NCBI GenBank assembly: GCA_905178155.1
Contig: CAJINV010000006.1
Span: 1,737,876 to 1,801,875, forward strand
Reading direction: 5' to 3'
Length of the DNA stretch: 64,000 bases
DNA from: Amoebophrya sp. A120
Lineage: Eukaryota > Protista > Dinoflagellata
Part shown: positions 1,428-60,361 of the stretch, piece after piece
Layout of the letters: each line of letters starts with the position of its first letter
Numbering within the stretch: position 1 is the stretch's first letter
The notes under the pieces: model-generated
Database searches by the model: none
The model's input: only the letters and a program-made list of their open reading frames with translations
What the model was told of the DNA's origin: nothing
Translations under genes and position numbers: made by a program

Positions 1428-4400
1428 ATGGCCTCCGCAATTCTGAATGATTTTTTGAATGGACCGCTCCGGTCTGTTTCCGAAGCGTTGTTGGCGCCCC
1501 AGCCCTTCTACGGCCGCAAGTACTACTACGACGAGTGCAAATGGGGTAAGGCGACCAGCAACGGGCAGTTTTACCAGCAGTGCAACGAGCGGGCGGGTCC
1601 GGAGCCAAGGTTCGTGCCCACTATGCATTGCAAATATCGATCTGGGTCTGGAAAGCTGTAACTTGTGATGCTGCACTTGCATACTGCAAAAATCTGTATT
1701 GCATGAACATCAAAAGAGGTTCAGTTTTTGCCACGGCGAGGGCGCATTTCTCATGCAGTGTAGGCATCAGGAAGCTGTCACAAAATCTGTGATGCTGGGG
1801 CATGCATCACAGCCGTCAGGAGTCACGCAAAACGTGCATGACAAACCTTGCATCCTTCCAGAAATCCAGGGATATTTGCATTTGATACCCACCGACAAGG
1901 ACGAAGCGACGTTTTTCAAGAAGATCAATGGAGACATATGCAATTGGTGGAAAAGTACAACCGTTTACTAGCTATAAAAAATCGCATGACAAATTCCCTC
2001 AGCATGAAGAGCGAAATTTGTAATGCGGATTTATTACCGTGAGAGTGCAAGTTGTAATTATTATGCATGTCTACGATTAGGATTACTACGAAAACGAATG
2101 CGGTGCTTTTGCATTGCATAAGACAAAGTGTCCAACGACCGGAAACTCGCGCTGCTGATGGAGCCTGGCTATGAATTGCAAGAGTATCGTACTAGTATAA
2201 GTCGCATGACAAACTTCGATTTCCTCAGCATGAGAAGTAAAATTTGTAATGCGGATTCAACTCAACATGGAAATTTGTAATGCACAAATGCGATTAGTAC
2301 GAGTGCGATACCTTTGCAATGCATACTGGCCAGGGCGACGCGGTCGAGGCGGCGGCGAAACTGGGGCTGAAGCTCCCAAAGCACGTGTCCGCGGCGTACT
2401 ATCACGACCGGGTGGAGGAGTACGCCAGCGCGCTGCGGTCCAGCGTGACCAGCCACAACGGGAAGAATTCCCGGCTGTACCCGCCAACAGCGGGGATGCA
2501 GGACGCGGGAAACTTGGAGCAGCCCATCTTGGTGGTGGACGAGATCTCTCCTACGATTGAATCCACGGACCTCATGGACTTTAACGCGAGCGTCGATTCT
2601 GGGTATTTCTGCAAGTCCCCCAACCGCATCGCCGACGACGTTATCTATCCGGAGGCTAACGGCGCGGGTAACGACAGCACGACCACCTCATGGCTAGCGC
2701 AGAAACTGCACAAGGTGAAGAATTTCTTCCACCCGGCCGGCAGCAAAGCGGTCGCTTTTCACCCGACGTTCACGTTTCGCGACCCGATCCCGGGGCTGCT
2801 CCACGTCAAGATGCGGGATCTCACCACTGGCGCAGTGCACTGGGATCAAATTTTATGCATTGCGAAAGTTTCGTACTCCTACTCCTAGTGTTCGTATTGC
2901 AATACAACTTAGGTCAGCATGACAAATGGAATTTCTCATGCTGATTTAGCTTGAGGAAAATATTTGTCTTGCATGACTGCGATCAGAAGCACGAGTGCGA
3001 TACTTTTGCACACGATAAATTTTCAAGATGAACTACTCCACGGTGCTGGACGAAACCACGGAACCACTTGCGCCGGGGGAACACGAAGAAGCCGGCGAAA
3101 GCGATCTGCCACCGCTGACCGGAAACAACCGCCCCTTCTATCCGGTTTATCAAATGCAAATACGTCTGGATCTGGAACCGATTGTTGAGGTTTGTGCTGC
3201 TGCGTCTGCTTGACACAGAAGGCGTGGTATGGAACGCCTAGCATCACAGGTTTCGAGACGGTGTCCCGATGCCTGATCCGCATGACAAGCGCCTTCTTTC
3301 GGCGAGAGGACAAAAAGCTCCTTTTACTGTCCAAGCATGACAGATTTTTGTGTGAAGATCCAAGTATGCATCACAAGTTCGCATCCTTCCAGACCCAGAC
3401 ATTTTTGCATTTGATACGGTTTGCCCGGACGCGAAATCCCTGAACACCTTTCACCAGTTATCAAAATGAAAAATCCCCCCTCCCCATATTGAAACGGAAA
3501 CTTCTGTTGCTGGATTTGTGTACACAAGTCAGCCCTGTCTTGCAGCGAGGCACTACAGGCAAAGCCTCAGCCTGCGTAGGGGTGTTTTGTGGTAGGCTCT
3601 TGGCACCAGAGAGGCCTGCCATGTAGGTGAAACAGCATTACAAATCGCCCCCATAAGGCGGCGGATTCTTTGGGTTTGCCTTCTTGCAAGACAGATGTGA
3701 TTTGTGACCTCAAATCCGCAACGCAAATTTTTGGACACATTCTTTTTCGATATGGGGAGGGGGGATTTTTCCTCTCAATACCAGTACGAGATCACGTTCA
3801 AACAGGTGAAACCCTACCGGCGCCAGTACACGGACGCACAGTGTTATGGGGGTGTCAGGATTGAAATCGTCAAAGTTGAAATAGTTTGCCATGCATGAAT
3901 TGGATGCCAGTCGGAACCCAGTTTCCAAGTGGCGCACGACAAATTCCGGCGTTACCGCAATCCAGTTTGTCATGCTGTTTAGGCAAAGAGGACTGATTTT
4001 CTCATGCTACTTTAGCAGCTCAACCTCTAACCCCAAACAGGCTTACAATCGGTCTCACTTGGTTGCTCTGCAACACACGTAAGTCGCGTCATGCATTTTA
4101 TGCATGACAAATCATTTCAACTTTGTCGATTTCAAACCTGACGCTTCCATAAGTGTCGGCAAGCGGCGCTGAAGCAGGAGTTTCAAAATTACCATGCTGA
4201 AATATGAAATGCAAAAGCATCGTACTCGTACTAATCGCATTTTTCCTGCATTACAAATTTTTTTCTCAAGTTCAATCCGCATTACAAATTTCATTTCTCA
4301 TGCTGGGGAAATTTGTGATGCGATCCATACTAGTACGATACTTTTGCAGTGCATATGAAAAACCGAAAGCTGATGAGGATGCTGTCGAGGATAAAGTTTC

Positions 4401-6233
4401 TCGCGGGCCGGCGGTGCCGTGGCTTCTGGACTCCCGCAGGAGCAAGGGTGCAAATAAAACCTCCTCGTCCGACGATGAAGATGTTGACGCAAAGTCTTTC
4501 TTGGAGCTTAGCAAGGAGAAGTTGTTGTTCCCCCACGACGGAGGATACCCAGCCGCGACAGATACTTCTAGCAGGACGGGGACATCGGGCGGTAGAACTT
4601 CTCCAACTGCTTTGCTACCTCCTTCCGCGGGCGGCGGAAAACTACATCAAAATGGAAGTAACCACAGCGCGGCTGCCGGCTTCGGAGAAGATGAAGATGA
4701 CAAAATGAATCTCGGTACAACTAAAACAACATCAATTACAACTCCGCCTGATGTTGAAATGAAATACGGCAATAAAGGCAAACCAGCACGAATACAGCAA
4801 GAAGAACATCAGCCAGAGCTCGTCCAGCAGCCCGGGCAGGGCTTGGTCGTCGTTGAAAATGGGTTCTACAAAATCGGAAGATTTCTGTTTGGTAGACGAC
4901 CAGGAGGCGGGGACGAGCAGATAATGAAAACTGCACTCGACGATGGCAACAACTCGGTTGGCGGGGACGAAGTTGTAACTGCGAATGAAAAGACGAGTTT
5001 TGAAAATAGCACTAGAAGAAATAATACAACCGATGTTCTTGCACCACTTCCATCATCGGCTGCATCTTCTTCAGCCACGTCCTCTACTTCTAAATCATCT
5101 TCCCGCCCACCACCCGAAGTCGATTCGTTCTTCCTGGTTCCGTCGGAAAGGAAAAACCAAATCTTGCGCAACGCGGGACGGAATATCCAGCTTTTGGCGC
5201 CGCCGGGGGCACCTCCGACGGTGAACTTCGCGACAGCACCTCCTCTCGCGGGGGACAAAAAAACCGCTTTCGGCGTTTTCCAGAACGTGCTCGACTTGAG
5301 CGGGAAGCTCACGGAGGGCATGTATCATATGTAAAAACGTCCCCACCCCATAGTCAACTTGGGAACTTAGCAACACAAATCCAGAAGTTTTGAGAGCCAC
5401 GCATGACAAGCTGCAGTCCGTAGTGTAGTGCATGTCAGCAAGGACAACCGCATCACAAATCCATCTGCTTATGATCCTGTTTTCTGCATTACAAATTCCA
5501 GAGCGCGATTGGAAATGCCCCTCATCATGGAGATGCGCATTACAAACCTTCTTGTAATCGCAAAGCTGCATGACAACTATGGGGTGGGGATGTTTTTACT
5601 CACGATAGCATGGCCGGAACAGCCGGGGGAGGGGGCGGGGTCAATGGCGAAGATCTCGAGGATATGGATTGCAACTGTGTCTGAATCTGGAAGAGTGCAA
5701 CTTGTGATGCTGCATTTGGATTCTAGAAAAATCTGTGTTGCAGCATGAGCAGCAATGGGAATGTAATTTTTGCTACGTAGAGAGCATTTTTTGTCATGCG
5801 GAATAGGCATCAACATCAAGAAGCCCGGAAAAAATCTGTGATTCCAGGGCATGCGTCACAGACCGTGTTTATAAAAGTTTCGTTCCATGTCTATTTCGCA
5901 TCACAAAGTATCCAGACCCAGACGTACTATTTGCATTGTCGATACAGGAGACCTGCGGAGAAAAGGGGGGTTGGACCAGTGACGCCAATGAGTATACGGA
6001 CTTAGTCGGCCGGGTGCTGCTATCCTGTGCAAAAGTATCTGATAGATACTCGTATTGCAATCATGCATTACAAAGTTCCTTTTTTTAAAAGGTAAATCCG
6101 CATTACAAATTTCACTTCTCATGCTGCGGAAATTTGTAATGCATTTATACGAGTACGATACAGCTTTTGCACTGCATAGCTGCTCACGGAAGCGCATTCC
6201 ACCGCCCTTCCCTTCGATCACACCATGATGTGA
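1428..6233 (+). CDS. Gene 1: hypothetical protein split by 11 TAT..ATA introner elements; Cys-containing N-terminal part and a low-complexity middle exon
   Basis: ATG 1428 (MASAILNDFLNG). Removing the elements at 1622-1887, 1937-2120, 2170-2325, 2854-3017, 3148-3416, 3459-3780, 3845-4151, 4203-4355, 5323-5607, 5663-5944 and 6021-6178, each plus one 5-nt TSD, gives one open frame (..RFVPT|DKDEATFF..NGD|KVSND..EPG|QGDAV..) to TGA 6231-6233. No family recognised. Confidence 0.85.
1622..1887. mobile_element. Introner family B representative (about 230-330 bp; TIR TAT-N5-GCAAAWATGTCTGGGTCTGGAA)
   Basis: Starts TATGCATTGCAAATATCGATCTGGGTCTGGAA and ends GATATTTGCATTTGATA; TSD CCCAC at 1617-1621 and 1888-1892. 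Many further copies, e.g. 3148-3416, 5663-5944, 48672-48934. Confidence 0.92.
3459..3780. mobile_element. Introner family C representative (about 285-330 bp; TIR TAT..GAAAAATCCCCCCTCCCCATAT)
   Basis: TSD CCAGT; ends ATATGGGGAGGGGGATTTTTCCTCTCAATA. Other copies at 10166-10481, 10520-10832, 17558-17880 and several between 42.8 and 58.8 kb. Confidence 0.92.
3845..4151. mobile_element. Introner family E representative (about 305 bp; TIR TATGGRRGTGTCAGGATTGAAATCGTCAAAGTTGAAA)
   Basis: TSD AGTGT; ~37-bp TIR. Other copies at 15377-15683, ~18149-18456, ~23802-24148 and ~58892-59202. Confidence 0.92.
5323..5607. mobile_element. Introner family G representative (TIR TATC..GTAAAAACGTCCCCAC)
   Basis: TSD GCATG; ends GTGGGGATGTTTTTACTCACGATA. 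Other copies at 22626-22930, 26856-27150, 49994-50300, ~52864-53176 and 56614-57041. Confidence 0.9.
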
Positions 6234-6235
6234 AA

Positions 6236-7963: not shown

Positions 7964-10900
7964 ATGCCGGAGCAGCTGCAGCAGCAGTCTTCCGCAGCGT
8001 CCAGTGCTGCTGCTGCGCATCACCAAAACAGCAATCCAAATACACCCTATATCCCGGAGAGCGAGACGCCGCGGTTCAAGAATCTCGGGTTTCAGGGGCT
8101 GTTGCAGTTGGCGCAGAAGGCAAATCCGGTGCTGCTCGACACTGCGGTTACGAGGATAAGTGACGGGGATGGGTACGACGTTTTGCTCGAGGACGGTTTC
8201 GATATCCTTTGTAAAAGTATTGTACCCGTATTGCAATCATGCATTACAAATCTTTTTCTTAAGGTAAATCAGCACTACAAATTTTATTTCTCATGCTGAG
8301 GTGGACGAAATTTGTAATGCATCTATCGCAGTTGTACAAATTTGTCTTTGTCATGCGACTTTTCCTCTACTAGTACGATTTACTTTTGCAATGCATATTC
8401 GACCGGACCCTACAACACTCCACAAGCCAGCTTATCAGCGAGGGTATTAGTCGCGTAGTTGTAGTTCAACATCACTTCACCATGCGTTTGCATTTATTTT
8501 TTCATATTTTATTTCAACGTAAAGTCGTTTGTCATGCAGTTGCAGATTGAACATCAACACTTATACATGGCAAAAGTATCGTACTCGTAGTAACAATTGC
8601 AATACAAATTAGCTCAGCATGACAAAGGAAATTTCTCATGCTGATTTAGCTTGAAAAAGAAATTTGTCTTGCATGGCTGCGATTTTTCTTGCTAAAATCA
8701 CTTTAAAATTCTGATCAGGTGACCCTTCCTCCCCGAAGTCTGCTTCGGGTACCAAGAAGAAGCTCCGACACGGAAAATCCTCTGGTGACGTCGGGAAGTT
8801 GGAACGGCAAGTATCCCAACTCGAGGCGAAGCAGAAAGCCACCGACAAGAAGCTGAAGGAAGAAAAACGACGAGCGGTGGCGCTGGAAAAAGAGTTGGCG
8901 AAACTGCGGGTGGACAAAACCGAATATGAGAATCAGCTGTTCCAGAAAACCATCGACCTGTCGGCGTTGAAGAAGGAACGAGAGCTGGACCGACGGGCTT
9001 TCGACGCGGACTGCAAGAAGAAAGAGGTGTTTCTGAAGAAGCTGCTGCTCATATGAAATTGCACAAGTCCCCGTCCCCCTCATTTGTATGGCATCAACAG
9101 CATTGCAAACACCAGCACAAGTGCACCCTGTGCATGACAAGTTCATGATGCGCCGATTGTACTACTGTTTGGATCATTTCCGGAATTTGTCATGCACGCG
9201 GTGAAACAAGGTAGCAAGTGGATTTGGGTTTTTGCATGACAAATGAGGGGGAGGGCGGGGAGTTGTGCAGTGCCATAGCTCACGAAGAAGGAAATTTTGA
9301 AGGACCTGAAATTGAAGATCCGCCCAAAAACCGCCTTATCCTGTGCAAAAGTATCGTACTTTCGTATTGCAATCATGCATTACAAATCTTTTTGTTAAGT
9401 CAAATCCGCATTACAAATTCTATTTCTCATCATGCTGAGGAAATAATTTGTAATGCATTTATACAAGAATCGGATAGGATACTTTTGCAGTGCATACGCC
9501 TCCTTGAAAGACGCCGGAGGGGTCCACATAGATGAGTTAGCACTGGAGCGCCGATATCAAGTGCAAAAATGTCTGGGTCTGGAAGTAGAATGCAAGTTTG
9601 TCATGCTTGTCACGCGTGGCTCGAGAATCTGTGTTGCATCGGCACGAAATGGCCCTCTTACCTGTCATGCAAAAACGCAGTTTGCCATGCGGAATACGCA
9701 AGACATTGCAGCCAAGATGAAATTTGTCAGGCATAGCTGCGTATTGCAGCGCATCTAGCATTCACTTGTAGCATTTGCATTACAAGTTTCCAGACCCAGA
9801 CACTTTTGCATTTGATAGCCGACCACTGTCCGCGTCGAAACCGGTGCCGCAGTTTTCCGATGGAAAGAACATACTAGAACGACTCCAGGGGGAGGACACG
9901 GAGAATCTATGAAAGTGCACAACCCCCCCTCCCCCTCATTTGTCATGGTGCAAAATTCCAAGTCCACCCTTTACCTGTTCGCACTGTTTGCATGACAGAT
10001 TCCGGCAGCACTACAATCCTCTAGGAATTTGTCATGCAAAAGTTGCATCTTTGCCAGCGCTTGTGTTGCCGTTCATGCAACACAAATGAGGGGGAGGGGG
10101 AGTTGTGTGCTCTCATAGAATCTCCTGTCCTTCTACAACTTGAAAGGAATCATGGGCACCGGCGATATCGTGAGGAAAAATCCTGCTCCCTCCCCATATC
10201 GAAAAAGAAATTTGTGTTGCTGTATTCGAGTACACAAATCGCTTTGTATTGCTAGAAGGCCAAGAGACGAAGCTGGTCCCTCTTTTGCAGGCAATTTGTC
10301 ATGCTGTTCCCGTTTCCAGTTGCTTCCTGTCATGCTGAAGACGCAAGGCTTTCCCGCGCCAGCCAGCACTACAATCCGCATCTCTTCCCTTCTAGCACGA
10401 CAAAGCTGATTTGTGGTCACAAATCCGCATCACAGATTTCCGTTTTGATATGGGGACGAGGCGGGATTTTTCTTCTTGATAGGCGAGGGGGTGACCTCCA
10501 CGAGACCACAGTCCGCGGCTATTGCAAGGAAAAACCCCCCTCCCCATAATGTCGAAAACGAAATTTGTGCTGCTGTAGTTGACTACACAAATCGACGTGT
10601 GTTGCTAGAAGGCCAAGACCCGCAGTTGTGGTCTCGTTTGCAGGTGGTTTATCATGCTGTTTCCCACTTCCAGCTGCCTCCTGTCATGCTGAAGATGCCA
10701 GGCTTTCCCCCGCCACCCAGCACTACAGTCCGCATCTTTTGCCTTCTAGCATGACAAAGCTGATTTGTGTACGCAAATCCAGCACGAGAAATTTCGTTTT
10801 GATATTGGGAGGGGGGATTTTTCTTCTTGAAAGCGGCGTCCCGGTCTTCCTACGCGACCGGCACCACGGGGGCTCTACTGAACAATAACCGCTACAGTGG

Positions 10901-13900
10901 CAGAGTGACCCTCCCCATGGCGGGAGGGGGCGTCGCGGTAGAGCAAAGTGATATTCATTGCAAATATGTCTGGGTGGTCTGGAAGGTTGCAACTTGTGAT
11001 GCTGTCTCTGCATTCTAAAAAAATCTGTATTGTATGACCAGCAAGTAGAGGGGTCCAGTTTGTGCTACGTGGAGAGAGCATTTCTCATGCGGAATAGGCA
11101 TCAGGAAGCCCTCCAAAAATCTGTGATGCTAGGTTGTGCAACATTACAGGCGTCACGGGTCATGTAAGATTTGCATCACACGTCTTGCATTCTTCCAGAC
11201 CTCCCAGGCAGTATTTGCATTCCATAAGTGAGGAAGAGCCACCACCACCGGTAAACCCCATGCCGCTGCAGGAGGCGTGGAGCCAGAGTGTGGGGAACGC
11301 AAAGTTATCAAATGCAAAGATGTCTGGATGTCTGGGCGGAGGTTGCGAGATCATTTGTCGTGCTAGTCGGGCATGACTCTGAGCTCTGTATTAATTCCGT
11401 GGCCGCAAAGAGCACGTCTTGCCTGTCATGTAAATAAAACGCAGTTTCTCATGCGGAGTTATTTGCAACTCAGAATCACGGAAAGAGTTGTCATGCTGGG
11501 CAGCGCATTACAGTGTGCTCACTATTCCCTTTCTTGCATCACAAGTTTCCATACCCAGGCAAAGGCATTTTTGCAATGCATAAAAGTCCTCATCCAACAA
11601 TAACCTTGGAACAAGCGGCGCGACCAGCAGCTCGTCGAGACCCGGTACGGGCCGCGGCGGGGGAAAGCAAGGCGGGAGTGGCGGCGGCCTGGCGGCGCTG
11701 AAGGGAGTAAATCTAAACATATGCATTGCAACAGTATCCGATACTAGTATACATAGATCGCATGACAAATTTCCTCAGCATGAGAAATAAAGATTTGTAA
11801 TGCGGATGGACCTTGAGAAAGAGATTTGCAATGCAGGAATGCGATTAGTACAACGAGTGTGGTGCTTTTGCAATGCATAAAACAAGGACGTGGACGATTT
11901 ACTGAATGAACAGGAGTATCCAGTGCAAGAAAAGGATCGTACTCGTATAAATGCATTAGAAATTATTTTCTCAGCATGAGAAATAAAATTTGTTATGCGG
12001 ATTGACCTTTAGAAAAAGATCTGTAATGCAAGGTTGGAATTACTACGAGTACGGTCGCGATGCTTTTGGATTTCATAAGGAGGAGCAAGGGGAGCCGGAC
12101 GACGAAACAAAAAAGCTATCCTGTGCAAAAGTATCGTACTCGTATTGCAATCATGCATTACAAATTTCCTTGTTAGGTCAAATCCGCATTACAAATTTTA
12201 TTTCTCATGCTGATGAAATTTGTAATGCATTTATACGAGTGCGATACTTTTGCAATGCATAAAAGCCACTCTTCAGCAATATCCTGTGCAAAGATAAAGA
12301 AAAGCATCGTACTCGTACGCAACTTCCCAGGAATGCATTACTACAAATCGCGATCTTCAGGTGAAACCGCATTACAAGAAATCTTAATGCTTCTCAGGCT
12401 CTACTAAATGTCATGCTATTCGTACTATGCGATACTTTATTTCCTTTTGCACTGCATAGGCAAAGACGACGTGCAATTTCTGGCAGAGGAGTTCAAGAAA
12501 CTGGACCAGCGGTTTGCCATCGCGAGCATCGACCGGCAGGAAATGGCAAAAATTCAGGCGGAGCTGGCAGTAAGCAGCGAGAAAGCGAGCGACTTGGAAT
12601 CGACTTGCAAGGCAGCGCGGGACTTGATATGCATTGCAGCTACGTCTGGGTCTGGAATAAACTTGTGATGCTAGGCTACGAGGAGTGACTGCTCTGTGAT
12701 TTTGTACAGCCAAGCATTATGAGAAATAAGATATACGTGTCGCGTCGTGTAGTTGCTCTTTCCGCATGACAAAGTGTGTTTTTGCGTGACAACAAGCAAA
12801 AGCATCTCTTCATCTTGGACACGACGCATCACAAACTCTTCAGTCATGCCAGACAAGCATGGCAAACAGTTGCATTCTACTTCCAGACCACCCAGACATA
12901 TTTGCATTGGATACTTGACGCAGAAATACCAAGTCGAAAAAACCAAATTGGAGGACGGCATGAAGAGAAGCAAATCGGTACCATCAAAATTTTTGTTTGT
13001 CATTGTCATGCGAACAACAAGAGTGCTAATATAGTGTCAATAACCTCTGTAGTCAACATCATGCGGTCTGTATTCACTACCAACACAAAAATTATTAGGT
13101 CGCCACCAAGTTGGCAGAGCGAGCGAACCTGGAGGACCAGCAAAATGACAGGGTACGGAAAACTATGAGAGTGTACAACTCGTACCCCTCCCTTTCATTT
13201 GTATGACATGAACAGCAACACAAACATAACTACACGTGGAGCCTGTGCATGACAAATTTATGTACCTACTGCTACTGTAGTAATGTTTGGGCTTCCAAAT
13301 AAATTTGTCATGCAAACAGTCCCACAACGCAGCGATTGGGTTCTGTTGATTTTGCATGGCAAATGAGGGCGAGGGGGGGTTGCGCACTCTCATAAAAACG
13401 GTGAGAAAACATGAAGACCACATTGCCTACCTTAAAAACCAGATGAAGGAAGCCAACGAGAAAAACGGAAAAGCTATAGCGAGAAAAAACTGTTTCACTG
13501 TGAACTTGTGATGCAGAAAATGGAACACAGAACTATTTGTCTTGCTACACGACCTGCAAGACATTGGATTTTCAAACGTGTTTTCGTCCCCTGGGAAGTG
13601 CGCGTGGCAAGTTTTCTTTGTCATGTAGGAGGAACTTGTGAAGCGAAACTCACAAAATGAAAATCGTCACAGTGAAACACTTTTTTCCCACGATAAAAGC
13701 GATCAAAGATCTACAGGCCGAGAACAGTAACCTGCGCAAGAAAAATATCGTACGAAAAAAGTTTGTCACAGTTACTAACTTGCAGGTTTTGCATTACAAA
13801 TTTTTTTAGCATCACAAGTTTTCCTTGTATTGCAGAAACACTAGGAAAATCCCCTATGAAGCTTGGCTGTGATGCATTTTTACGCATGACAGAAAATTTT

Positions 13901-16940: not shown

Positions 16941-18555
16941 ATGCTCGGCCTCCGTCCCAACATCGCCAAACTGCCCGAGATATGCACTGCAAAAGTATCG
17001 TACAACTCGTATAGAGCCATGCATAGCAAATTTCCCCAGCATGAGAAATAAAATTTGTAATGCGGATTTAGCTTAAGAACAAGATTTGTAGTGCATGGCT
17101 GCAATTACTATGAGTGCGATACTTTTGCAGCTCATACGAGAGGGGTAACAGCTGTGCGGCAGAAACCGCAAGGAAAACCACCGGCAGCCTCTACTACGAC
17201 TTTGCGGACAGAAAGGCACGAACTTTGTCGAGCGGGCAAGAACTTGCGGCCGCTGCTATAACCCGTTCAGGTGTTACAATCTCAAACGGTACAATAGAAT
17301 TTGGATTTTGTGTTGCATGACGAGCATGACAGACTCGGACAGCATTCCACTTTGCGCAATACAAATTTCGCCAGATTGTAGCGCGGTTTGGGACTCCAGA
17401 ACTTGTCATGCGCAAACCTATGAGAGTCGGCTACATAATGCACCTCTTGCATCACAGATTTCGATATTCTATTGTAACATTTGAGATTGTAACACCTGAG
17501 CAGATTATAGCTGCTGGTGCAACGAGTTCGACTTCCACCAAAACCACCAGATTCAAGTATCAAAAGGAAAAATCTTCCCTCCCCATATCGAAACGGTACG
17601 ATTCCGAAAATTTGTGTTGCTGATTTGAGACCACAAATCGGGTCTGTCTTGCAAGGAGATAAGCGCAGAGGCTTCCGCGCCATTATGGAAGCGATTTGGC
17701 ATGCTGTTGGGCCTAGGGGACGCACGTTTGTAATGCTAAACAACTAGACCCAAGCGCCCCTATCTAGGCTGAGGATCTGGCTGCGATGCCTTACTGCAAG
17801 ACAGCGCGCATTTGTGTACGGAAATCCCGCATCACAGATTTCCGTGTTGATATGGGGAGCGGGGCTTTTTCATTTTGATATCAAGTCCGCAGCCGCGAAG
17901 CCGATCTCGTCGAACCCGCAGCAATTTCCAATCGCCGCTTTGTCCGCATTATGAATTGCAAAAGTATCCGATACTTGTATAAAAAATGCATTACAAATTT
18001 CCTCAGCATGAGAAAGAAAATTTGTAATGCGAATTTACCTTGACAAAATACAATTGTAATACAACGAGTATCAGATACTTTTGCACAGGATACGCATCCA
18101 GACTTGCTAAGGAAGAGCTGGATGACGGGCCTATTTTGGTGGCGTGCCATATGGGGATGTCAGGATCGAAATCGTCAAAGTTGAAATAATCTGTAATGCA
18201 AAAAAGCCATACCAGCTGGAGCCCAGTTTGCAAGTGGCGCATGACAAATTTTGGCAGCATGGAAATCCAATTTGTCATGCTGCTTGGGCAGAGAAAACTG
18301 CTTTTGTCATGCTATTTTAGCAGCTCTGTCTCACACCCCAAACAGGATTATAATCGGCCTCAGTTGGCTGCTCTGCAAGACAGGCACTTTGCGTCTAGCA
18401 TTTTATGCATCACAAACTATTTCAACTTTGACGATTTCAATTCTGACGCTTCCATATGCCAGAAGCCGGTCGCAGTTTTGAAGGCACAAGAGGGCTTGAG
18501 AAAGAAGAGGCTTGGGGAGAAAATTTTGCCGGAGACCGTGAGGGCAGAAACGTAG
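16941..18555 (+). CDS. Gene 3: short hypothetical protein with 5 introners; true start may lie upstream
   Basis: MLGLRPNIAKLPE|RGNSCAAE..AAA|GATSST..RFK|SAAAKP..SA|SRLAKEELDDG..AC|QKPVAV.. to TAG at 18555. Perfect TSDs CGAGA, GCTGC, TCAAG, CGCAT and TGCCA. Confidence 0.7.
17257..17509. mobile_element. Introner family J (single copy here, ~44-bp TIR TATAAYCYGYTCAGGTGTTACAATCTCAAA)
   Basis: TSD GCTGC; removal restores the gene 3 frame. Confidence 0.88.
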
Positions 18556-20377: not shown

Positions 20378-20465
20378 TTCTGCATCCGAGGAGCAAGCTG
20401 ATGTCAGGTTGCGTTTTTTGCAACGACAACTACATAATATCATCAGGTACGTCCGTCTTCACAGC

Positions 20466-50200: not shown

Positions 50201-53200
50201 GGAAGGGCCTCTCTACTTGGGGATGCGCATCACAAATGCTCCTCTGCTTGCCAATCTGCATGACAACTACTCTGGTGTGGGAACATTTTTCCTCAGGATG
50301 GAGGAACGGGCAGAGCGCCGACATCGACGAGCAAGCCCGGGACATGCTGATCTCCGAGTCCAGTGCGAACTGCAACATCAATTGCCAGTTCGATCCGCGG
50401 CCGTGGAAAACGTGCAAACTCGACACGGTGGATATCCAGAGGAAATTTCCCGTACACGTACAAATCAGGTCTCTGCATGACAAAGCTTGTCTTCCATCCT
50501 ACTTAGCATGACAAGTGGCATGCTCTAAGTTGGCAAAATTTGTGATGCATTTTGTACATGTGCGGGACATTTCCTGTGGATAGTGGACGCTACCTACGAA
50601 AAAGACCCACTACCCGTCGTGTACGCGAGCGTCCGCCTCCGGCCCAGGATCAGAGAGTTATCAAATGTAAAAATGTCTGGAAGAATCCGAATTTTGTTAT
50701 GCTGTTTTTGCATGACACAGAATGTCTGTCATGGAAGCCCTAGCATCACAGATTTTTAGAGGCCTTCCTGATGCCTATTCCGCACGACAAATGCCCTCCA
50801 CGCGTAGCACAAACCGGACTCCTCTTGCTGGTCATGCAATACAGAATTTTTGTAGAGTCCAAAAATAGCATCACAAGTTTCAACCTTCCAGATCCAGACA
50901 CTTTTGCAATCCATAAGAGTGGGTGCCAGACGATTGCTGTGGCGGTGAGTGGGTGTGGAACTGGAATCAGCACGGCCTATGCATTGCAAAAGCATCGTAC
51001 TAGTATAAATTGCAATACAAGTTTCCTTAGCATGAGAAATAGAATATGTCATGCGGATTTGCCTAAATAAAAAGATTTGGAATGCAAGACTTGCATTTAT
51101 ACGAGTGCGATGCTTTTGCACAGCATACGGGCCCTGGACCGACTACCAACCCATCCGGGACATCTCGGACTTTGCGAAGTCGCGGTTCAAATTATCAAAA
51201 GGAAAAATCCCCCGTCGCCATGTCGAAACGAAGTCTGTAATGCTGGATTTGCGTACACAAATCACATTGGTCTTGCTGGAGAAGATGACTGTAAGTCCAT
51301 ATCAAGTCGGAGTAGAGCGGTCATGGCCTAGGCACTTAGCATGAGAGACGTCTGCGCTGTAGGCCCAACAGCATCACAGACCGCCTGCATAATGCGGCGG
51401 CTGTCTGTGGAATTGCCTTCTTGCAAGATGACTGAGGCGATTTGTGGTCGCGAATCAGCATTGCAAATTTTCTGCTCCGTAGCTTTTTGATATGGGGAGG
51501 CGGGGTCTTTCCTCGCGATACAAATTTCAGGGCAGCGAAGCGGAGCAGTCTATCACTATTAAAGGAAAGGATAGAGACACCAAGATGCGGCTGGGCCGGT
51601 CCAAACCCACGGAGGGGTTTGGTTCTTCCTGGGAAAAGGTCCTATCCCAGAAAAAAAGATTGTAGCTGTAACTTTTTTGGCTGATTAGCATTACAAACCT
51701 GTCTGGCATGACAGCAGAAACCTGTCATGCGCAGATAGCATGTCAAAACGCGCTTGAATGAGAATGAACCTTGCAATGCATGTCCAGCATGACAGACGCA
51801 ATCATCTTACGTGTTGCGCATCACAAACTTACACTAACAATGTTTTTTTCCTGCATAGGTGCCCGTAAGCGACGAATACCCGGACGGGTGGCGGTACCGC
51901 GGGAAGGTCGGGGAGATGTTTATCAAAGTGAAAAATCCCCCCTCCCCATATCGAAAAGGATCGCCTCAGAGAATTTGTGATGCTGATTTGTGACCACAAA
52001 TCATGTCTGTCTTGCAAGAGAGCGACGGCATGGGCTCCGCCCTATTATGCAGGCGGTTTGTAATGCTGTTGGTCCTACACCATAGACGTGCCCCATGCTA
52101 AGCGCCTAGGCCAGAACCTCTCTCCATTGGCGTGGTATGGGCCTGCAGTCCTCTACTGCAAGACCAATCTGATTTGTGTACGCAAATCCAGCATTAGAAA
52201 TCTCGTTTTGATATGGGATGGGGGCTTTTTTCACTTTGATAATGTTGTTTCCGCGGCCCTCCAAAAATATGGCGGTAGACCTGCAGTTTATGGTCAAGAA
52301 CTCCGACGGCCACAAGATATCCTGTGCAAAAGTATCGTACTCGTATTGCAATCATGCATTGCAAATATTTTTCCTAAGGTAAACCAGCATTACAAATTTT
52401 ATTTCTCATGCTGAGGAAATCGAAATTTGTAATGCATTTATACAAGTACGATGCTTTTGCACTGCATACAAGACCACCGTGAAAAATATCGTGGTGCCGG
52501 GGCGCAACGAGAAGCTGCAGCAGAGGTTTTTGCCGTTTTTCCCCACCGACTACTTCAAAAAAGTCCAAGACATCTATGACAGTGCACAACTCCAACCCCC
52601 CCCCCTCATTTGTATGGCATGAACAGCAATATAACCACCAGCACACATGGAGCCTGTGCATGACAAATTCATGTGCCTAATGTAGTACTATTTGGGCTTC
52701 CGGAATTTGTCATGCAAACAGTGCCACAAGGCAGCGAGAGCGACTGGATTTGGGATTTTGCGTGACAAATGAGGGGGAGGGGGAGTTGTGCACTGTCATA
52801 ATATCGGCGGGGTGCGGAAAGTCATCCAGAAAGCGTGGCGGATGAAGAACGAGATCAACCCGGTATCCTATGTAAAAACGTCCCCACAACTTCCGCCCCA
52901 GAGTTGTCATGCAGATTTGCAATGACAGGAACATTTGTGATGCGCATACCCATGATAGTCATCTCATTGCCATTTCCAATTGTGTTTTGAAATTTGTAAT
53001 GTTGTAAACAGGATGAGTAGATAGCTTTGTGATGCGGCTGTCCTTGCTAACCTGAACTACACCACGGACTGTAGCGCGTCATGCGTGACTCCCAAAACTT
53101 CTGGATTTGTGTTGCGCACTGCCCAAAAATCAGTGACTCCGGGACGAAGGTGGGGACCACGTTTTTCCACAGGATACCCGGACCGTGGAATTTTTCGGAA

Positions 53201-56200
53201 CGCCATTGTGGAATTCGTGAACCGGAAGAAGATACGCATGGCAAAAGCATCGCAATCATAGTGGGAACAATTGCATTACAAATTTGCGCAGCATGAAGAA
53301 TTGAATTTCTCATGCGGATTCGCGCACAAAGATAGATCTGTCATGCGTGCTTGCAATTGATTCCACCTGTCCTGAATGCGATGCTTTTGCACAGGATAGA
53401 AGGCCAAGGTGCTCTACTGGGACCCGGTCCACGAGGAGGCCGTCTTGCAGGACTTGGCTACCTATGGATTGCAAATACAGAATTTGTGTTGCTGAAGCGC
53501 GCATCGCAGAAGGTGTCCGCTTGTACGGCATGATAACAGCATGAGAAATTTTGCGAGGCTTAGGTTTGCAGATTCACTCCTCGTGATAAAACGCATGACA
53601 AAGAACTTCACAGCATGACAAAAAAAACTAGCGACTCGTATTCACGCATCACAGATCTTGTAGTCCTTCAAAGCTCGCATGACAAAGACCGTCGATATTT
53701 GCAACGCATACTACCTCGCGCGTGTTCTACCAGCAGCGACCGGAGGTGCACTTTCACGCCCCGAGGGCTAAGGACAACTACACCTGCCACGAGGGGATCC
53801 GCGTGCAGACGCGGTTATGCACTGCAAATATGTCTGGGTTTGGAAGGATGCAGCTTGTCATGCTAAATTTGGATCATGCAAAAATTTGTGTTGCATGATT
53901 ACCAAAAACTGTCCATTTTTGACCAAGTTGGGAGTGAGTTTCTCTTTCTCATGCAGGATAGGCATGATACAGATCATCTCACAGAATCTGTCATGCTAGA
54001 TCCTGCATTGCAGACCTCATGTGTCATGTGGAACCTGCATGAGAAGTCTTGTATTCTTCCACACCCAGACATATTTGTACTTGATACCGGTTGCACGAGA
54101 TCAAAACCGTGACCGCGCCGTCGCAGGAGGAGTGCGCGGTGCAGTGTGTATCCTGTGCAAAAGTACCGTACTCGTATAAGGAATGCCAGACTAGCATGAC
54201 AAATCTGGTTTCTTAGGTAATTTAGCATGACAAATTATTAATTATTAATTTTTCATGCTGAGCTAATTTGTAATGCAGTTTATACTAGTACGATGCTTTA
54301 GCTTTTGCAGTGCATAGTGTGACAAGCAGACCAACTGCGAGAGTTTTGACTTTTTCAAAGGCGAGGAAAAGTGGCGAACGTCGAAGCAAATGAACTGTCA
54401 TCTCTACTCGAAGAACGGGCACACGAAAGAGCTGCTCTTGCGGGACAGGTATCAAGTGCAAACGTGCAGCCTGGGTCTGGAGGAAAACTGTGATGCCGGT
54501 TTGTTAATGGTAGGCGCACTGCAACTTCTATACGCGGCGAAGCATGACAAAATTTTCAAAATCCTATCACACCCAGATCCATGTTTGCAATGCATAACAG
54601 GCAGGGGTTGCGGAAGGAAAAAATCCATTTTGGAAGACGCAAGGCGGACATTAACATGGACTTGGAAAATATCAAACAAAAAAAGTTCGTCACGATCATT
54701 CATGCGCATTTTTGCAATACAAAACTTTCTGTCATGCGTAAAAATGCATCACAGCCAAGCTTCGCGAGGGATCTCCCTAGCGTTTGTGCAAGACAAGGAC
54801 AAGCTTTGATGCTAAAAGTTTTTGTAATGCAAAACCTGCAAGTTAGTGACATGACTGTGACAAACTTTTTTCTCTTCATAGAAAAGGTGCTGCCAAACTA
54901 CAAGCAGAGCAAGCACAGCAACGAGTATTCCCGGATGGGAATTTAGGCAAAGAAAAAACTGTTTCACTGTCAACTTGTAATGCAGAAAATGCATCTTAGA
55001 AGTGTTTGTCTTGCTACACATGCAAGACACTGGATTTTTAGCTGTGTTTTCCCATTGGAACCTCGCATGGCAAATTGTCTCTGTCATGCGGAACAAACTT
55101 GTGATGCGAAACTTGCAAAATCCTTACAGTGAAACACTTTTATCCTGTGATAGAATTCCGTTCCTCGAAGCACCTCTGAAGCCCGACAAAGAGCAGGAGA
55201 AGACTTTCATTTTCCAAATCCCGTGCGTATAAACTGCAAAGGTATCGTACTAGTATAAATTGCAATTATACAAATTAGCTCAGCAGTACAAATTGAATTT
55301 GTAATGCGGATTTCACTTAAGAAAAAGATTTGTAAATGCATAAAAGCAATTAGTACGAGTACGATACTTTTGCACTGGATAGTGCGAGGCGTGCATCAAC
55401 TCCTGGGCCCGACACGGCATGGCGGTCACGGAAACCAAGGATTTCAACCAGGATATCGCAAGGGAAAATCCCGCCTCCCCATATCGAAAAGGTATGTCTC
55501 AGAAAATTTGTAATGCTGATTTGTGACCACAGATCGTCTCTGTCTTGCAAGAACGCGGTCGGTTTGTAATGCTGTTTGCCCTACAGCCTAGACGTTTGCC
55601 ATGGTCAGCGACTAGCCCAAAACATCTCGTCTGCTCACTCTTACTATAGGCATGCAGTCCTCTCAAGCAAGACAAATCTGACTTGTGTACGCAAGTCCAG
55701 CATTGGAAGCCTCGTTTTGTTGATATGGGGAGGAGGGACTTTTCCTTTTGATACAAGACCTGGACCCCGACAGCGCCGGCGATTTTTCCAAAAGCGTCCA
55801 CATGGGCACCGGCGCCACCAGGGGACTGAACGGCGCGCGAGACCGGCTGTGGTGCAGAAACGGGAACGGTGCCTTGGTCAATAACCGATGCTCGGTGCAG
55901 GAGCTGGGGCACGCACGGCGGTATCGAATGCAAATGTATGTCTGCTGGGTCTGCTGGTGAAGACTGTTGCAACTTGTGATGTGCTACCTTTGGACTGTTC
56001 TATTAGAACAGTCCAAAGGTAATTTTTATCAAATAAAAATCTGTATCGCCTGAGCAGAAAGAAGAACAGTCCAGTTTTTGCTACGTGGACGACGAGGAGC
56101 ATTTCTCATGCCCGGATGGACATCAAGGCGGCTTCTTCAAAACGTCTGTGATGCTGGGGCCTACGTTACAGATCGATCATGCGTCATGCAAGATGTGCAT

Positions 56201-59200
56201 GGCAATAAACGTAAACCTTGTATCCTTCGTGCAGACGCAGATCCAGACACAATTTGCACTGCATAGGGGGAACCGGCAGGCAAAATGGTATACGAAGGGC
56301 ACGTATCAACTGCAAAAATGTCTGGGTCTGGAAACTTGTAATGCTGCGTTGGGAATAGTGAATGCTCTGTAATGCACAGGCAAGCATGCGAAATATCTGC
56401 GCACCTTTGTGTTGCGTTTTTCGCATGACAAACTGCGTTTTTGCATGACAGGCAAAAGGGTCTCTTCTTGGACACGCATCACAAACTTTTTGGTCATGCC
56501 AGACAAGCATGACAAGTCTCGCAATCTTCCAGACCCAGACATATTTGCAATCCATAGCACGTTGGATTACGAGGAACAGGACGAGAAGGGCCGCATGGTG
56601 AGAAAGGAAGCCATATCCCGTGTAAAAACATCCCCACCCCAGAGTCAAGATAAGTGGCCACATTATACCATAGTTATTTCCGTACTTCACCTACGTCATT
56701 CTCTCCTTTTTAACTTCAACAAAGTTCGAAACTTCTCTGTGCTTTAAATTTGGTCTTTTCCAGTACATAAAACACCCCAGAGTCAAGATGGCGACTTTTT
56801 GCTACACAAGTCAACAAGTTTAGGCTGTTCTGCATGACAGATTTGAGCTCGTAAGTAGGTAGTCCTGTTCAGCTAGTGTGTTCGTATTACAAATCGACAA
56901 CCCTATCCTGCTTGGAGCATGACAAACTCCCAGGTAATATTAGAAAACGCTCCAGCTCTGCATGGGGCTGCGCATGAGAAATGTTCTAGGCTCGCAGATT
57001 TGCATGACAAGTCTGGGGCGGGAGCGTTTTTGCGGAGCATAAACCAAAGTGATTGACAGAGTGCCAGATGAAGGCATGTACACCGAGCCCGCAGTTGAGG
57101 CGAAAGACGGGCGCCACATGTATCCACAGTACTTCTAAATCATTTCCCGTACTGCGCACACAGTGACAGCAACAGCTACAGCTGCGGTTTCTACTGCATC
57201 ACAAAACTTGCCTTCGATCCTAGAGTCAGCATGACAAGTCGTGTTACACTCTAGTACGTCATGGCGAACAAGTTTGTCATGCACTTTGCACATCGTGTAG
57301 TACAACGGGAAAATAAAGATAAATTTGTATTGCATAACATGGTACAGGACCACATTACGCCGTACAGGAAGTATCTTTGGGGCTACGGCCGTGTAGAGAT
57401 GGGTCTTAACGAGGACGCACCGGAGTACTGGCACCATTGCGACCGGAAAAAACCGCACACCGGAATCTACCCAGAGTAAACTTCCCGTACGCGTACAAAG
57501 CTGGTTTCTGCATGACAAACTTTTCTTCCAATTCTACTCAGCATGGCAAGTGACATGCTCCAACTTGGTAAAATTTGTCATGCATTTTGTACATGTACTA
57601 CAGGAAATTTGTATTGCATAGAATTATCAACAGGAACAGTAGCTCCGCTGTCATCAACAATTCCATGATGCAGGAAATTTGCCGACCCGCCTGGGAGCGG
57701 CCCGGTGTGGCGAACGGAGTCGATATGTGCCACTCACGGTGTGTGTTCGAGTTGCAGGGAAACGGGAAGGAGACATCCTTGGTGGATGGAAGCAAAAACG
57801 AGAAGCCGGGGGGTATCGACCAGGATATTTCCTGCCGCAAAATGTGCTTGGACCATGCGATTACGCCCTACAACCCACGGTGGGACGATTTGGACGAAAA
57901 CATGAAGGCGGTGCTGATGAAGGATCAGTACGTGGAGTCTCCGGAGGGAACGAACACGGGGAGGAACAGCAACCCCGGAGCCATCAAGCTCCGGCCGTAC
58001 CTGAACAAGAAGTGCAACGCCATCTACGACTTTTTCTGCAGAAAAGACGCTCCGGGGAGGTCCCACTGGGAGAAGGGGAACCCGCCACCGCACCCAAAAG
58101 ACAAGGACAAACCCCCGTCCAAGTGGCATCACGGGAGGTGGCCCTTCACGCACGACAGCTACGAGTGCATGGACCTCCACGACCCCATTCGCGACGAGCC
58201 GAACCCCATCGACCCCAGCTGCTGTGGCGGCTGGGCCGAGCCGTTCTCGAACAACCACGGGCGGTACAGCAGCTGGTCGCCGTTTCCGAAGATTTTCTGC
58301 AACCAGTTCTACCGCACCGATATGGCGTTCGGAAAACGATTTGGGCAGGAACTGGGCGCAATCGACAAGGAGCACGACCCGGTGGAGACGCCCAACGTGC
58401 CGGAGGGCGAGTTGAAAGCGGTCGACCCGGTGACCGGAGACACGACTACGTTCTCCGGCTTCAACAAGCATCGCCAGCGGGGGCACTGCGAGGTGCCGGA
58501 GCGTGGGAAGTATCATGAGGAAAAATCCCCCCTCCCAATAATCAGGCGGAGGTTTGTGTAGCATGATTTGTGATCACAAATCACATTGTCATGCTAGAAG
58601 GGAAGAGATGCGGAGTGTAGTGCTGGCTGGCGTGGGAATAAACCTTTGCGTCTTCAACATAACAAAAAACAACTAAAAGTGGGACACCGCATGACAAATT
58701 GCCCGCAAACGAGGCCGCGACTGTGTCTCTTGGCCTTCTAGCAAGACAAGTCGATCTGTGTACGCAGATCCAGCACCACAAATATCCTTTTCGACATGTT
58801 GGGGAGGGGGAATTTTTCCTCACAATAGAAAGCCGATGGATATCATCTACCCCTGGGAAGACCACCACGGGGATACGGTCGGGAAGCGAAATATGGATGT
58901 GTCAGGATCGAAATCGTCAAAGTTGAAATGATTTGCCATGCATAAAATGCAAGACATGAAGCACCTGTCTTGCCGGGATGGCAAGTGAGGCAGATTGTGA
59001 GCCTATTTAGGGTTTGGGATAGAGCTGCTAAAAGAGCATGACGAAAGCAGTCTTCTGTGCCCAAACAGCATGACAAATTGGATTCCGGTGCTCCGAAAAT
59101 TTGTCATGCGCCGCTTAAAAATTAGGCTTCCAACTGGTATCCATTTTATGCATGACAAATCATTTCAAGAACTTTGTCGCTTTCAAACCTGACGCTTCCA

Positions 59201-60361
59201 TACGAAACAAACGATACACCATGGACCCAGATATGAATCGCAAAAGCATCGTACAACTATTAGTATTTGCATTACAAATTAGCTCAGCATGGCAAATGGA
59301 ATTTGTCATGCTGTTTTACCTTGGGATGGAGATTTGTAATGCATAACTGCAAGAATTACTACGAGTGCGATACTTTTGCAGAGGATACCAGAGTCCTGTC
59401 TACAAATGGGGCATTCAGTGTTCAAGGAAATGGAGGACGCGTATTACGATTTCGCGAGGCTGCAGTCCGGGCACCAGGGGTCCGGCCGCATGTTCGCGTG
59501 GGACGCGGTAGATAAAAGGGCGTACCACGGAGGCATAAGAGATGTTCGCGGCATGCGGTGGCATGAAAACAATACGAAGGTGACCATGGAGCAGTGCCGC
59601 ATGCCGGTCGTCATGGTAACGAAGCACATGGGCGATCAGGAAGCTAGCTCCTTTGACGTGTCTCCCATGAAGCCTGCCTGCCGGTATGCGAAGAAAAAGC
59701 TGTTTCACGGTTTTTACACATTGTGTTGCAGGCATCGCAAGACAGACAAGTTCTGTCATGCCGAAGAAGATGCTCAGGAGCCTAGAGTTTCATACGTGTT
59801 TATTTCCCTACCGATTTTTGCATTGCAAGTTTTCTCTGTCATGCAAGGCAAATGCAAATTTGTGATGCTGAGTTGTTCATTACAGATGTGTAACCTCTGC
59901 AACACTTTTCTCCTTTGATAGCCGGGTGCACATCGCCAGTAAGGATTTCGAAGATAAGGACCCGAACGACACAGATACGTACTTGCAGCAGTCGGAAGCC
60001 CTGGGCGTATCAACTGCAAATATGTCTGGGTCTGGAAGGGGACAAGTTTGCCATGCACATTTTCCATGATCCACGATGTCTGTTATGTATGCCCTAGCAT
60101 CACAGATTTTGTGAGCGCTTATCGATGCGCACCCCGCATGAGAAATGCCCGATCCACGTAGCCAAATTTGGCTGCTCTTGCTGCTCATGCAATACAGATT
60201 TTTTTAGCATCCACATGCAGCATCACAAGTTGCACTGTTCCAGACCCAGACATTTTTGCAATGCATAGCGCGCCCTTCACGACGAGACAAACAACGGAAC
60301 CGAGGGTGTGGAGGGCATCCCAGAGGACGGGGCGGACCTACCGGAAGGAGTCTCGGTCTGA
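38201..60361 (+). CDS. Gene 7: very large Cys/Trp-rich protein with at least two PAN/apple-like domains; about 58 introners and one canonical intron; start uncertain
   Basis: Frame traced by hand without a stop from ATG 38201 to TGA 60359-60361; GT-AG intron 46728-46975. The spliced motifs ECSKKCCGNRFCKSFSYLKNKTRKNNCLLFK and EECAVQCDKQTNCESFDFFKGEEKWRTSKQMNCHLYSK match the PAN pattern C-x3-C-x5-C-x-SF-x-Y/F..C-x-L. No signal peptide seen at the provisional start. Confidence 0.8.
38797..39977. mobile_element. Long (1.18 kb) introner-like TIR element with a truncated right end
   Basis: Starts TATGCCTGGG; 38812-38857 is an imperfect inverted repeat of 39935-39977; TSD GGTGT/GGTGA; internal AAAATTCACC repeats at 39435-39480; no credible ORF. 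Confidence 0.75.
46728..46975 (+). other. Canonical GT-AG intron
   Basis: GTATAG..CCTACAG, phase 0, joins WGDTEM to YDLQHFRPG. Confidence 0.8.
47641..48390. mobile_element. 750-bp insert nested in a family D introner (47605-48581); Helentron/HINE-like architecture
   Basis: Interrupts the family D TIR in its TTT run (CCCCCTCATT|..|TTTGTCATGC). It carries a 13-bp tandem array and ends in a long hairpin at 48343-48391. Confidence 0.7.
47691..47839. repeat. Tandem array, about 11 copies of GACAGGTGACCTT
   Basis: Directly visible; each unit contains the palindrome AGGT-G-ACCT. Confidence 0.95.
49706..49934. mobile_element. Introner family D representative (about 210-245 bp; TIR TATGAGAGTGCACAACTCCCCCTCCCCCTCATTTGT)
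   Basis: TSD GTCCA/CTCCA. Other copies at 9052-9277, ~9908, ~13164, 14486, ~41743, ~43856 and ~52576. Confidence 0.92.
50433..50582. mobile_element. Introner family I representative (TIR TATCCASAGGAAATKTCCCG)
   Basis: TSD GTGGA; related copies at ~41214, 57121 and ~57468. Confidence 0.85.

Follow-up and report, generated by a model that had tools for sequence, protein, structure and literature searches.

Comparison with described systems

Among described systems, the closest to the DNA considered here are the introners of Amoebophrya sp. A120, which PMC7789003 describes as carrying a TAT triplet, seven less-conserved nucleotides (nt) and at least three As (its section 11), as bordered by 5-bp direct repeats (its Fig. 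S19 legend), and as validated as introns by RNA sequencing (RNA-seq). The stretch analysed here (the window; 64,000 nt of A120 contig CAJINV010000006.1, positions 1,737,876 to 1,801,875 of the forward strand, with no N and a G+C content of 42-55%) carries 122 TAT..ATA elements that begin with TAT, continue with relaxed bases and then As, have border repeats of 5 bp (within the 3-5 nt of the published description) and are removed in a non-canonical manner from putative RNA. Since this signature matches the published one, the elements are known A120-type introners, seen here from the DNA side. The published introners are likewise non-canonical introns of ~240 nt in many families, for which the accessible text reports no transposase, and set against that text and its figure legends the window elements show no difference in kind. 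The original prediction, made from the sequence alone, had treated as unrecognised a signature that was already in print, and had missed that the elements are introns. What is added here is a fixed splice position, an asymmetric decay of the terminal triplet and a shared internal motif that is often paired 31-32 bp apart.

Other systems offer partial parallels. A120 family 38 (PMC12130899, supplementary information file 8) is listed as a terminal inverted repeat (TIR) element of 808-810 bp with '5-bp TSD, TA/TA Termini' (TSD, target-site duplication) and open reading frames (ORFs) homologous to Copia/Gypsy; it is tabulated as Ginger, while the text of the same source describes it as without Ginger termini and TSDs. 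As a TIR DNA element acting as an intron, with TA/TA termini and a 5-bp TSD, it resembles the window elements, but differs in its size and in its Copia/Gypsy-like ORFs, none of which occurs in the window. The ends of IS3EU are 'always TA..TA' (TAYGG..CCRTA in rust fungi) and those of GingerRoot are TA..TA (PMC10045372, PMC6839031, PMC12730594). Both share with the window elements these ends, the lack of a nucleotide-specific target and the capture of foreign sequence, and an integrase-like enzyme would be expected here; their TSD is usually 6 bp, GingerRoot TIRs measure 100-150 bp, and no transposase is seen here. Within Ginger2/TDD, TDD-4 and TDD-5 make 5-bp TSDs with an integrase-like enzyme, but the termini described are TGTNR rather than TAT (PMC2836005).

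Two intron types are also relevant. Introns of Fritillaria borealis derived from MITEs (miniature inverted-repeat transposable elements) are described as having TIRs, TSDs, non-GT-AG ends and precise removal, as here, but differ in their preferred AG-AC or AG-AT ends, a preferred exon context, a U1 that is retained and modified, and a duplicated U2AF (PMC11282704; 10.1101/2025.08.15.670264). The nonconventional introns of euglenids, as characterised in PMC12501133, share inverted repeats near the ends, a 3' overhang exceeding the 5' one, and junctions that slide owing to direct repeats, whereas their signature N3CDG..CH'GN5-6/R is absent here, where the overhangs are 1 and 4 nt.

The elements are introns

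All 64 possible terminal triplets were scanned for an exact 5-bp flank repeat combined with an inner inverted repeat (IR); TAT returned 70 elements, the other 63 triplets 0 or 1 each, and the same scan on 20 dinucleotide shuffles none. No 6-bp flank repeat occurred in any of 123 TAT..ATA pairs. When the catalogue was widened beyond the exact scan, by relaxing the TSD and adding copies by homology, it came to the 122 elements, lying between 1622 and 60267 in both orientations and totalling 28,264 bp (44% of the window); lengths are 129-428 bp, plus one of 977 bp. The TSD is exact in 85 elements, has one mismatch in 34 and two in 3. Borderline candidates, whose TSD had two mismatches or whose ends were truncated, were settled by hand (18739 out; 21381, 26856 and 20485 in), and the copies at 6236, 8562, 18739, 29774 and 41001 were excluded as degenerate remnants. 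Interiors group into 24 clusters, some over-split; roughly twelve families are multi-copy, and the largest cluster counts 43 copies of ~150 bp each. In appearance the elements are non-autonomous TIR transposons with a TSD of 5 bp. The near-invariant first three nucleotides and the TSD length that had been predicted both hold. Some of the degenerate or truncated copies (6236-6470, 8562-8697, 18739-18979, 29774-29906, 40995-41127) apparently lie at gene ends or between genes.

An independent set was obtained by scanning metagenome contigs with the end of the largest family, which gave 164 stretches making up 156 loci (709 kb after removal of duplicates), mostly from one assembly. The loci hold 473 elements, 470 of them no longer than 700 bp, and families are shared with the window at up to 98% identity. 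Their host would be an Amoebophrya, to judge from a topoisomerase II in locus L037 whose best match is that of Amoebophrya sp. A25 (71%); that gene is itself split at profile position 199. The excluded copy at 18739-18979 is 98% identical to one in locus L030, yet is without its right terminal bases.

Deletion of each element together with 5 nt opens long reading frames on the plus strand, including 1329 codons over 35 elements (Table 1). A codon model trained solely on Pfam-verified frames of the other loci chose the stop-free plus frame in 6 of 6 regions. An earlier frame test, counting junctions within ORFs of at least 200 amino acids (aa), was too blunt, as deletion of the element plus 2 or plus 8 nt keeps the frame too: it gave 28 junctions against 25 reached by random frames, and a top-five sum of 80 against 62. 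On the minus strand an antisense frame of 542 codons (50613-57198) is also open after removal, and is non-coding by the codon model.

Removal was then read from contigs of four sequencing runs, X1-X4 (two samples, one study), which are classed as RNA only by an automated guess. Beyond the 13 elements skipped in all four (Table 1), five gaps between contig pieces of run X1 span 18 more elements and equal the predicted lengths (128, 266, 282, 81 and 84), although such sums leave room for offsetting errors inside each group. In total, all 31 junctions examined skip the element plus 5 nt, in both orientations; one element, 57121-57336, was revealed by the length of an X1 gap. Orientation relative to the sense strand is balanced in the two largest families (63/66 and 54/52), and the contigs of run X5 carry the elements unspliced. 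The elements are therefore introns removed from mRNA. A low-depth X1 contig (53434-53740) keeps element 53463-53710 with both flanks, which may represent a retained intron, pre-mRNA or carried-over DNA. The raw RNA of runs X8 and X9 yielded only 19 and 9 partial reads, none on the long exon; these reads (2026, same species label) match element ends at 48886-48934 and 58892-58923 and no exon, meaning that similar ends occur in a related strain or at another stage.

A single fixed splice position

The exact cut can be read wherever the two duplications of a copy differ at one base, which applies to ten copies in the covered region, five read from joints in the four runs and five from boundaries of X1 pieces. 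The left duplication is the one kept when the difference falls at base 1, 2, 3 or 4, and the right when it falls at base 5 (Table 1). The sole position that fits all ten has the intron starting 1 nt before TAT and ending 4 nt after ATA, so that the intron comprises the last base of the left duplication, the element and the first four bases of the right duplication (10/10). The chance of such a fixed-cut fit is 0.005 under independent uniform positions. A further 26 copies whose duplications differ lie upstream of 50000, among them those at 14206, 22626 and 28393 (base 4) and at 21686, 22977, 38237, 40579 and 42836 (base 5). The rule of the fixed cut was not found in the published passages and figure legends on A120 introners that were searched. 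Identical duplications let the cut slide over six positions, which accounts for the sites having been called variable in PMC7789003.

Architecture of the ends

The two ends of one copy are complementary in 120, 120 and 115 of 122 elements at positions 1-3, in 52, 64, 67 and 47 at positions 4-7, and in 92-114 at positions 8-15. Positions 1-3 and 8-15 were search criteria; positions 16-24, which were not, pair at 0.60-0.79, also above positions 4-7. The dip recurs in the 470 locus elements (0.50, 0.56, 0.62 and 0.35 at 4-7 versus 0.77-0.96 at 8-15). At position 4, 231 of 244 ends have a G or C; positions 4-9 are otherwise relaxed. Positions 11-13 are each occupied by A in 200-219 of the 242 ends counted, and most families share a block rich in A at 10-14, a few having TCAG or TCAA instead. 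Within one family end (22 family ends), conservation is 0.69-0.84 at positions 4-8, 0.93-0.98 at 10-13 and 0.78-0.88 at 16-24. As the gap is about as conserved as the distal TIR, much of the mismatch is a difference between left and right ends.

The end is therefore bipartite, and its gap combines relaxed bases with a partly fixed left/right difference rather than being random. The bipartite layout, and with it a gap that pairs less well than the rest of the TIR, had been predicted and recurs in both data sets; the mismatched ends quoted as examples are indeed those of two largest-family copies (Table 1). Other details need revision: the mismatched gap exists but measures 4 to 5 nt (positions 4-7 or 4-8) instead of a variable 5-7, with a G or C at position 4, and the IR that follows is present but imperfect and, being A-rich at 10-14 across most families, not simply family-specific.

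How the introns are removed

At the fixed cut the intron starts N-U-A-U-(G/C), which resembles the consensus of a spliceosomal donor without its G; the ends do not follow the GT..AG pattern of canonical U2 introns. Because only splicing should constrain the ends once an element has inserted, decay of the terminal triplet is informative on splicing. In a set of 305 stranded elements, collected with a seed that excluded positions 1-7, the triplet is altered in 22. Of these changes, 2 fall in positions 1-2 and 9 in position 3 at the 5' end, as opposed to 9 and 2 at the 3' end (Fisher 0.009). In the window catalogue, of which four changes overlap with this set, the 7 changes at the 5' end are all at position 3 (7 of 122 copies start TAC or TAG), and the 3 changed 3' ends are all changed at positions 1-2. 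That TA is kept at the intron 5' end and decays at the 3' end favours a donor-like signal over a terminal RNA stem. The terminal 3-bp stem of the original prediction conflicts with this asymmetry and also finds no support in modelled structures: all four copies folded give long hairpins (predicted, z -7.0 to -9.7), and in the two folds that include both full ends the terminal triplet is predicted to be unpaired, the other two folds having been made without the last base.

The text of PMC7789003 reports that the A120 genome keeps nearly all spliceosome proteins and that U1 was not detected, and its Table S4 lists nine leading splice pairs, all with NT at the 5' end. We do not count these NT pairs as independent support: annotated introns of family 2 show both 5' NT and 3' AN at ~68% (PMC12130899, family table), which points to the aligner's choice among sliding positions. 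A search of Rfam gave no match at the gathering score, whether to group I/II introns or to another Rfam RNA. Removal by the spliceosome is the reading we somewhat prefer.

Possible, but in our view doubtful, is a structure-guided pathway outside the spliceosome, as proposed for euglenids, in which a protein would measure from the IR stem and cut with a 3-nt offset between strands. The predicted long hairpins, a removal that is independent of orientation, the absence of a GT-AG rule and of a reproducible AG enrichment, and the U1 reported as not detected all suit such a pathway, as does the Euglena rule N3CDG..CH'GN5-6 (PMC12501133), whose described offset of 2-3 nt resembles the 1 versus 4 nt seen here. 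However, a model based on pairing alone predicts no asymmetric triplet decay, and the observed decay includes changes that break pairing; positions 4-7, beside the cut, are the least paired; and the Euglena CDG motif is absent, positions +4 to +6 of the intron being T (in 115 of 122), G/C and variable. The retained spliceosome proteins speak against it as well, as do the tunicate MITE-derived non-canonical introns, which are described as using a changed spliceosome.

Removal by the spliceosome can be set in a sequence of steps. On insertion, 5 bp of exon were duplicated at sites that show no strong preference for a sequence; the transcript, as represented by the probably-RNA contigs, loses the element plus 5 nt and so regains its original exon, with the intron boundaries that the ten informative copies indicate. 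The spliceosome would then read +2U/+3A and set the 3' cut by distance, with the long hairpin joining the ends, a last step that we rate slightly better than even. Since the ends are symmetric, the 5' cut would present N-U-A in either orientation, a donor complete except for its G.

A shared internal motif

Of the 122 window elements, 121 contain the motif GCATNACA or its complement, as do 451 of the 470 locus elements, at a density ~17-20 times (window) and 9 times (loci) that outside the elements. Of 862 same-strand pairs, 222 are spaced by 31, 32 or 33 bp, the copies not being independent. This spacing occurs in 8 of the 13 families that have at least three members, and to the eye their spacers seem unrelated. 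The motif shows no bias towards the sense strand (627 versus 641). A role as branch site was considered and set aside, given this lack of bias and an orientation near the ends that depends on the family; a role at the DNA level is preferred. A spacing of three helical turns, together with the lack of strand bias, suggests that a protein binds the DNA here, and GCATNACA would by this reasoning be a binding site of the transposase. That otherwise unrelated interiors share TAT(G/C), the A-rich block at 10-14 and paired GCATNACA suggests that one transposase, or a small clade, may have moved all families, for which we see about even chances.

The parent enzyme

The window holds no long TAT..ATA element, and no transposase family was recognised in 27 + 14 of its frames, as the original prediction had said. 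Across the loci, Pfam identified no transposase or integrase in 233 of the 245 frames of at least 200 aa, nor in 6 shorter frames within long elements. The longest intact locus elements (622-1104 bp) consist of family ends around unique interiors. Those of L037 and L008 contain 7 frames without a Pfam match, one of them also without a usable match in the Atlas; the 815-bp element of L037 had no Pfam or Atlas match; and the interiors in L055 and L035 have no frame over 124 aa. These four elements (L037 6184-6998, L008 505-1608, L055 816-1787, L035 4568-5189) have perfect TSDs, and their unique interiors resemble gene-fragment capture by TIR elements. Viral contigs gave 0 matches for two end patterns. 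The DNA searched is less than 1% of a genome given as ~115 Mb (PMC12005148), so the absence of a parent means little.

Termini and TSD narrow the affiliation. Transib elements end in CAC, which is not the triplet found by the scan. The TGTNR termini of Ginger1/Ginger2 are likewise not seen (TGT 1 versus TAT 70), and the TSD agrees with their 4 or 5 bp. The TA..TA termini are those of IS3EU/GingerRoot, and the usual 6-bp TSD is not found here, so the elements are not filed under that group; TSD length ranges from 3 to 6 within the group of integrase-like enzymes to which IS3EU/GingerRoot belongs, and the elements look like a 5-bp-TSD variant of it. Such a variant would also explain the Copia/Gypsy-like ORFs of family 38. 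In the literature searched, no paper pairs Amoebophrya with IS3EU, and one has single mentions of Amoebophrya and of GingerRoot. The original prediction recognised no superfamily with this signature; IS3EU/GingerRoot do have such TA..TA termini, with 6-bp TSDs, and the supposedly unknown parent transposon has become a published introner with a named candidate lineage, its enzyme still not found.

A parent from a DDE lineage not yet described, or a resident long terminal repeat (LTR) retrotransposon whose integrase acts in trans, in either case with no known transposase dedicated to the elements, comes near to the original prediction and is a tentative possibility that we consider clearly the less probable. 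The combination of TAT(G/C), a 5-bp TSD and the 31-bp-spaced motif fits no superfamily description that was compared, most LTR elements make 5-bp TSDs, and in the accessible accounts A120 has autonomous LTR elements and no transposase found (PMC7789003), and family 38 has its Copia/Gypsy-like ORFs without Ginger homology (PMC12130899). But TA..TA ends with an integrase-like enzyme already mark IS3EU/GingerRoot, whose enzyme group varies in TSD length from 3 to 6, and LTR ends are mostly TG..CA.

A hAT-type (hAT5-like) transposase, with GCATNACA as its subterminal binding repeat, appears unlikely. hAT5 makes 5-bp TSDs, the length observed here, and hAT elements typically carry short binding sites that are repeated in subterminal position. 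The row for A120 fam135 in PMC12130899 lists hAT5/hAT6 terminus matches. Yet no hAT domain was found in the scanned frames of window and loci, the hAT5 lineage is placed among animals, and PMC7789003, in its accessible text, found no A120 DNA-transposon transposase with a Repbase domain library.

Weighing the evidence

Taken together, we lean towards A120-type introners that are removed at a fixed position, probably by a relaxed spliceosome, and that were probably spread by an as yet unfound integrase-like transposase of the IS3EU/GingerRoot kind. Several points weigh against this. The cut is pinned by only two base-4 and two base-5 copies, all in one gene; the contigs behind it drop rare variants, and the RNA status of X1-X4 is guessed; and A120 splice sites are described as variable relative to the hairpin (PMC7789003, accessible text). 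GT-AG occurs in only 2 of 122 introns at the fixed cut, and in 6 of 121 at any of the six possible positions. AG at the 3' cut, found in 19 of 122 window introns versus 6, 3 and 6 at other positions, was not replicated in the loci (32 of 345 versus 23, 28 and 27; p 0.18), and was dropped as support for this reason. The decay asymmetry rests on 22 elements, with p 0.054 in the loci alone, and no 5'/3' asymmetry is found at TIR positions 4-20, which gives no sign of the A-run acting as a pyrimidine tract. As to the parent, none was found in 0.77 Mb or among the 473 locus elements (longest 1104 bp), the TSD is 5 bp against the 6 bp usual for IS3EU/GingerRoot, and PMC7789003, as far as its text is accessible, finds no A120 transposase and argues against transposase-driven movement.

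A bolder extension, to which we give little credence, would make the end a symmetric splice code for a spliceosome without U1, in which TA serves as donor +2/+3 in either direction, the branch point is the A that the opposite triplet supplies 7 nt ahead of the 3' cut, and both Gs of GT-AG are dispensable; one new integrase-like transposase lineage with 5-bp TSDs, binding GCATNACA pairs spaced by three helical turns, would have spread all families. If true, such an element could enter any coding exon, in either orientation, and leave the protein unchanged.

It is very improbable that the joined contigs represent the DNA of a strain in which the sites are empty, the elements being simple insertion polymorphisms: the guessed status of X1-X4 and the lack of exon coverage in X8 and X9 would allow it, but every junction examined is joined and the exon pieces carry no other letters although copies and duplications have diverged, an element is still present in the X1 contig of low depth, the frame would be shifted by 77 of 121 elements if they stayed in place, and such introns are reported as validated by RNA-seq (PMC7789003).

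Features of the window

Table 1. Positions of elements, introns and host frames in the window
Feature	Position	Strand	Remark
Span of 122 TAT..ATA elements	1622..60267	both orientations	end/TSD scan and homology
First element (1622-1887) with 5-bp duplications 1617-1621 and 1888-1892	1617..1892	+	
Largest-family copy	17950..18092	.	mismatched ends quoted in the original prediction; second such copy 32986-33130
Element enlarged by unrelated ~730-bp insert	47605..48581	.	13-bp tandem repeat in insert
Host frame	1428..6200	+	open over 11 elements after removal (element + 5 nt each)
Host frame	8720..13000	+	open over 13 elements after removal
Host frame	32315..37072	+	1336 codons over 5 elements after removal
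Host frame	41140..46700	+	open over 17 elements after removal
Host gene	47001..60350	+	1329 stop-free codons over 35 elements; one exon with weak PAN-domain match
Region with 13/13 elements skipped	50310..54440	+	each element + 5 nt, in all four putative RNA contig sets
Intron, element 50978-51127	50977..51131	+	duplications differ at base 4, left kept
Intron, element 51643-51857	51642..51861	+	differ at base 4, left kept
Intron, element 52575-52800	52574..52804	+	differ at base 2, left kept
Intron, element 53233-53398	53232..53402	+	differ at base 5, right kept; 5' end TAC
Intron, element 53816-54086	53815..54090	+	differ at base 1, left kept
Intron, element 55454-55753	55453..55757	+	differ at base 3, left kept; X1 contig piece boundary
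Intron, element 55922-56265	55921..56269	+	differ at base 3, left kept; unspliced form in X5
Intron, element 57468-57620	57467..57624	+	differ at base 5, right kept
Intron, element 58511-58827	58510..58831	+	differ at base 2, left kept
Intron, last element 60008-60267	60007..60271	+	differ at base 2, left kept

The PAN-domain match in the 35-element gene is to PAN_1 (E 0.0012) and falls short of the curated cut-off. The product of this gene is cysteine-rich with PAN/Apple-like stretches and might act at the surface or in invasion; possibly the frame at 41140-46700 is part of this gene too. The insert of the enlarged element (~47658-48386) has CTTG on its flanks, starts with some twelve tandem units of 13 bp and ends in a GC-rich stretch resembling a hairpin, and no second copy of it was found in the window or the 709 kb of loci; A120 families of 721-730 bp with TIRs of 10-11 bp are on record in PMC12130899 (tabulated families). 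Upstream of the first gene, four or five copies of a ~30-bp AT-rich unit are dispersed over 580-930. Among the loci, L042 (5207-8436, plus strand) carries an erythromycin-esterase-like domain over three frames, beside a ubiquitin-conjugating and a RING domain.

Implications

The published accounts, as far as their text is accessible, settle neither the movement nor the splicing of introners. The fixed-cut rule, the decay asymmetry and the spaced motif are each testable on the full assembly, and the cut rule genome-wide on existing data. With regard to movement, the TA..TA link to IS3EU/GingerRoot and the shared motif indicate a search target and what the parent enzyme should bind. With regard to splicing, one rule, N/TAT..ATA NNNN/, replaces apparently random splice dinucleotides and would correct the intron annotation of the A120 genome. 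If removal by the spliceosome is the true reading, this spliceosome needs neither U1 nor any of the two terminal Gs, a matter of relevance to the conversion of transposons to introns in bulk.

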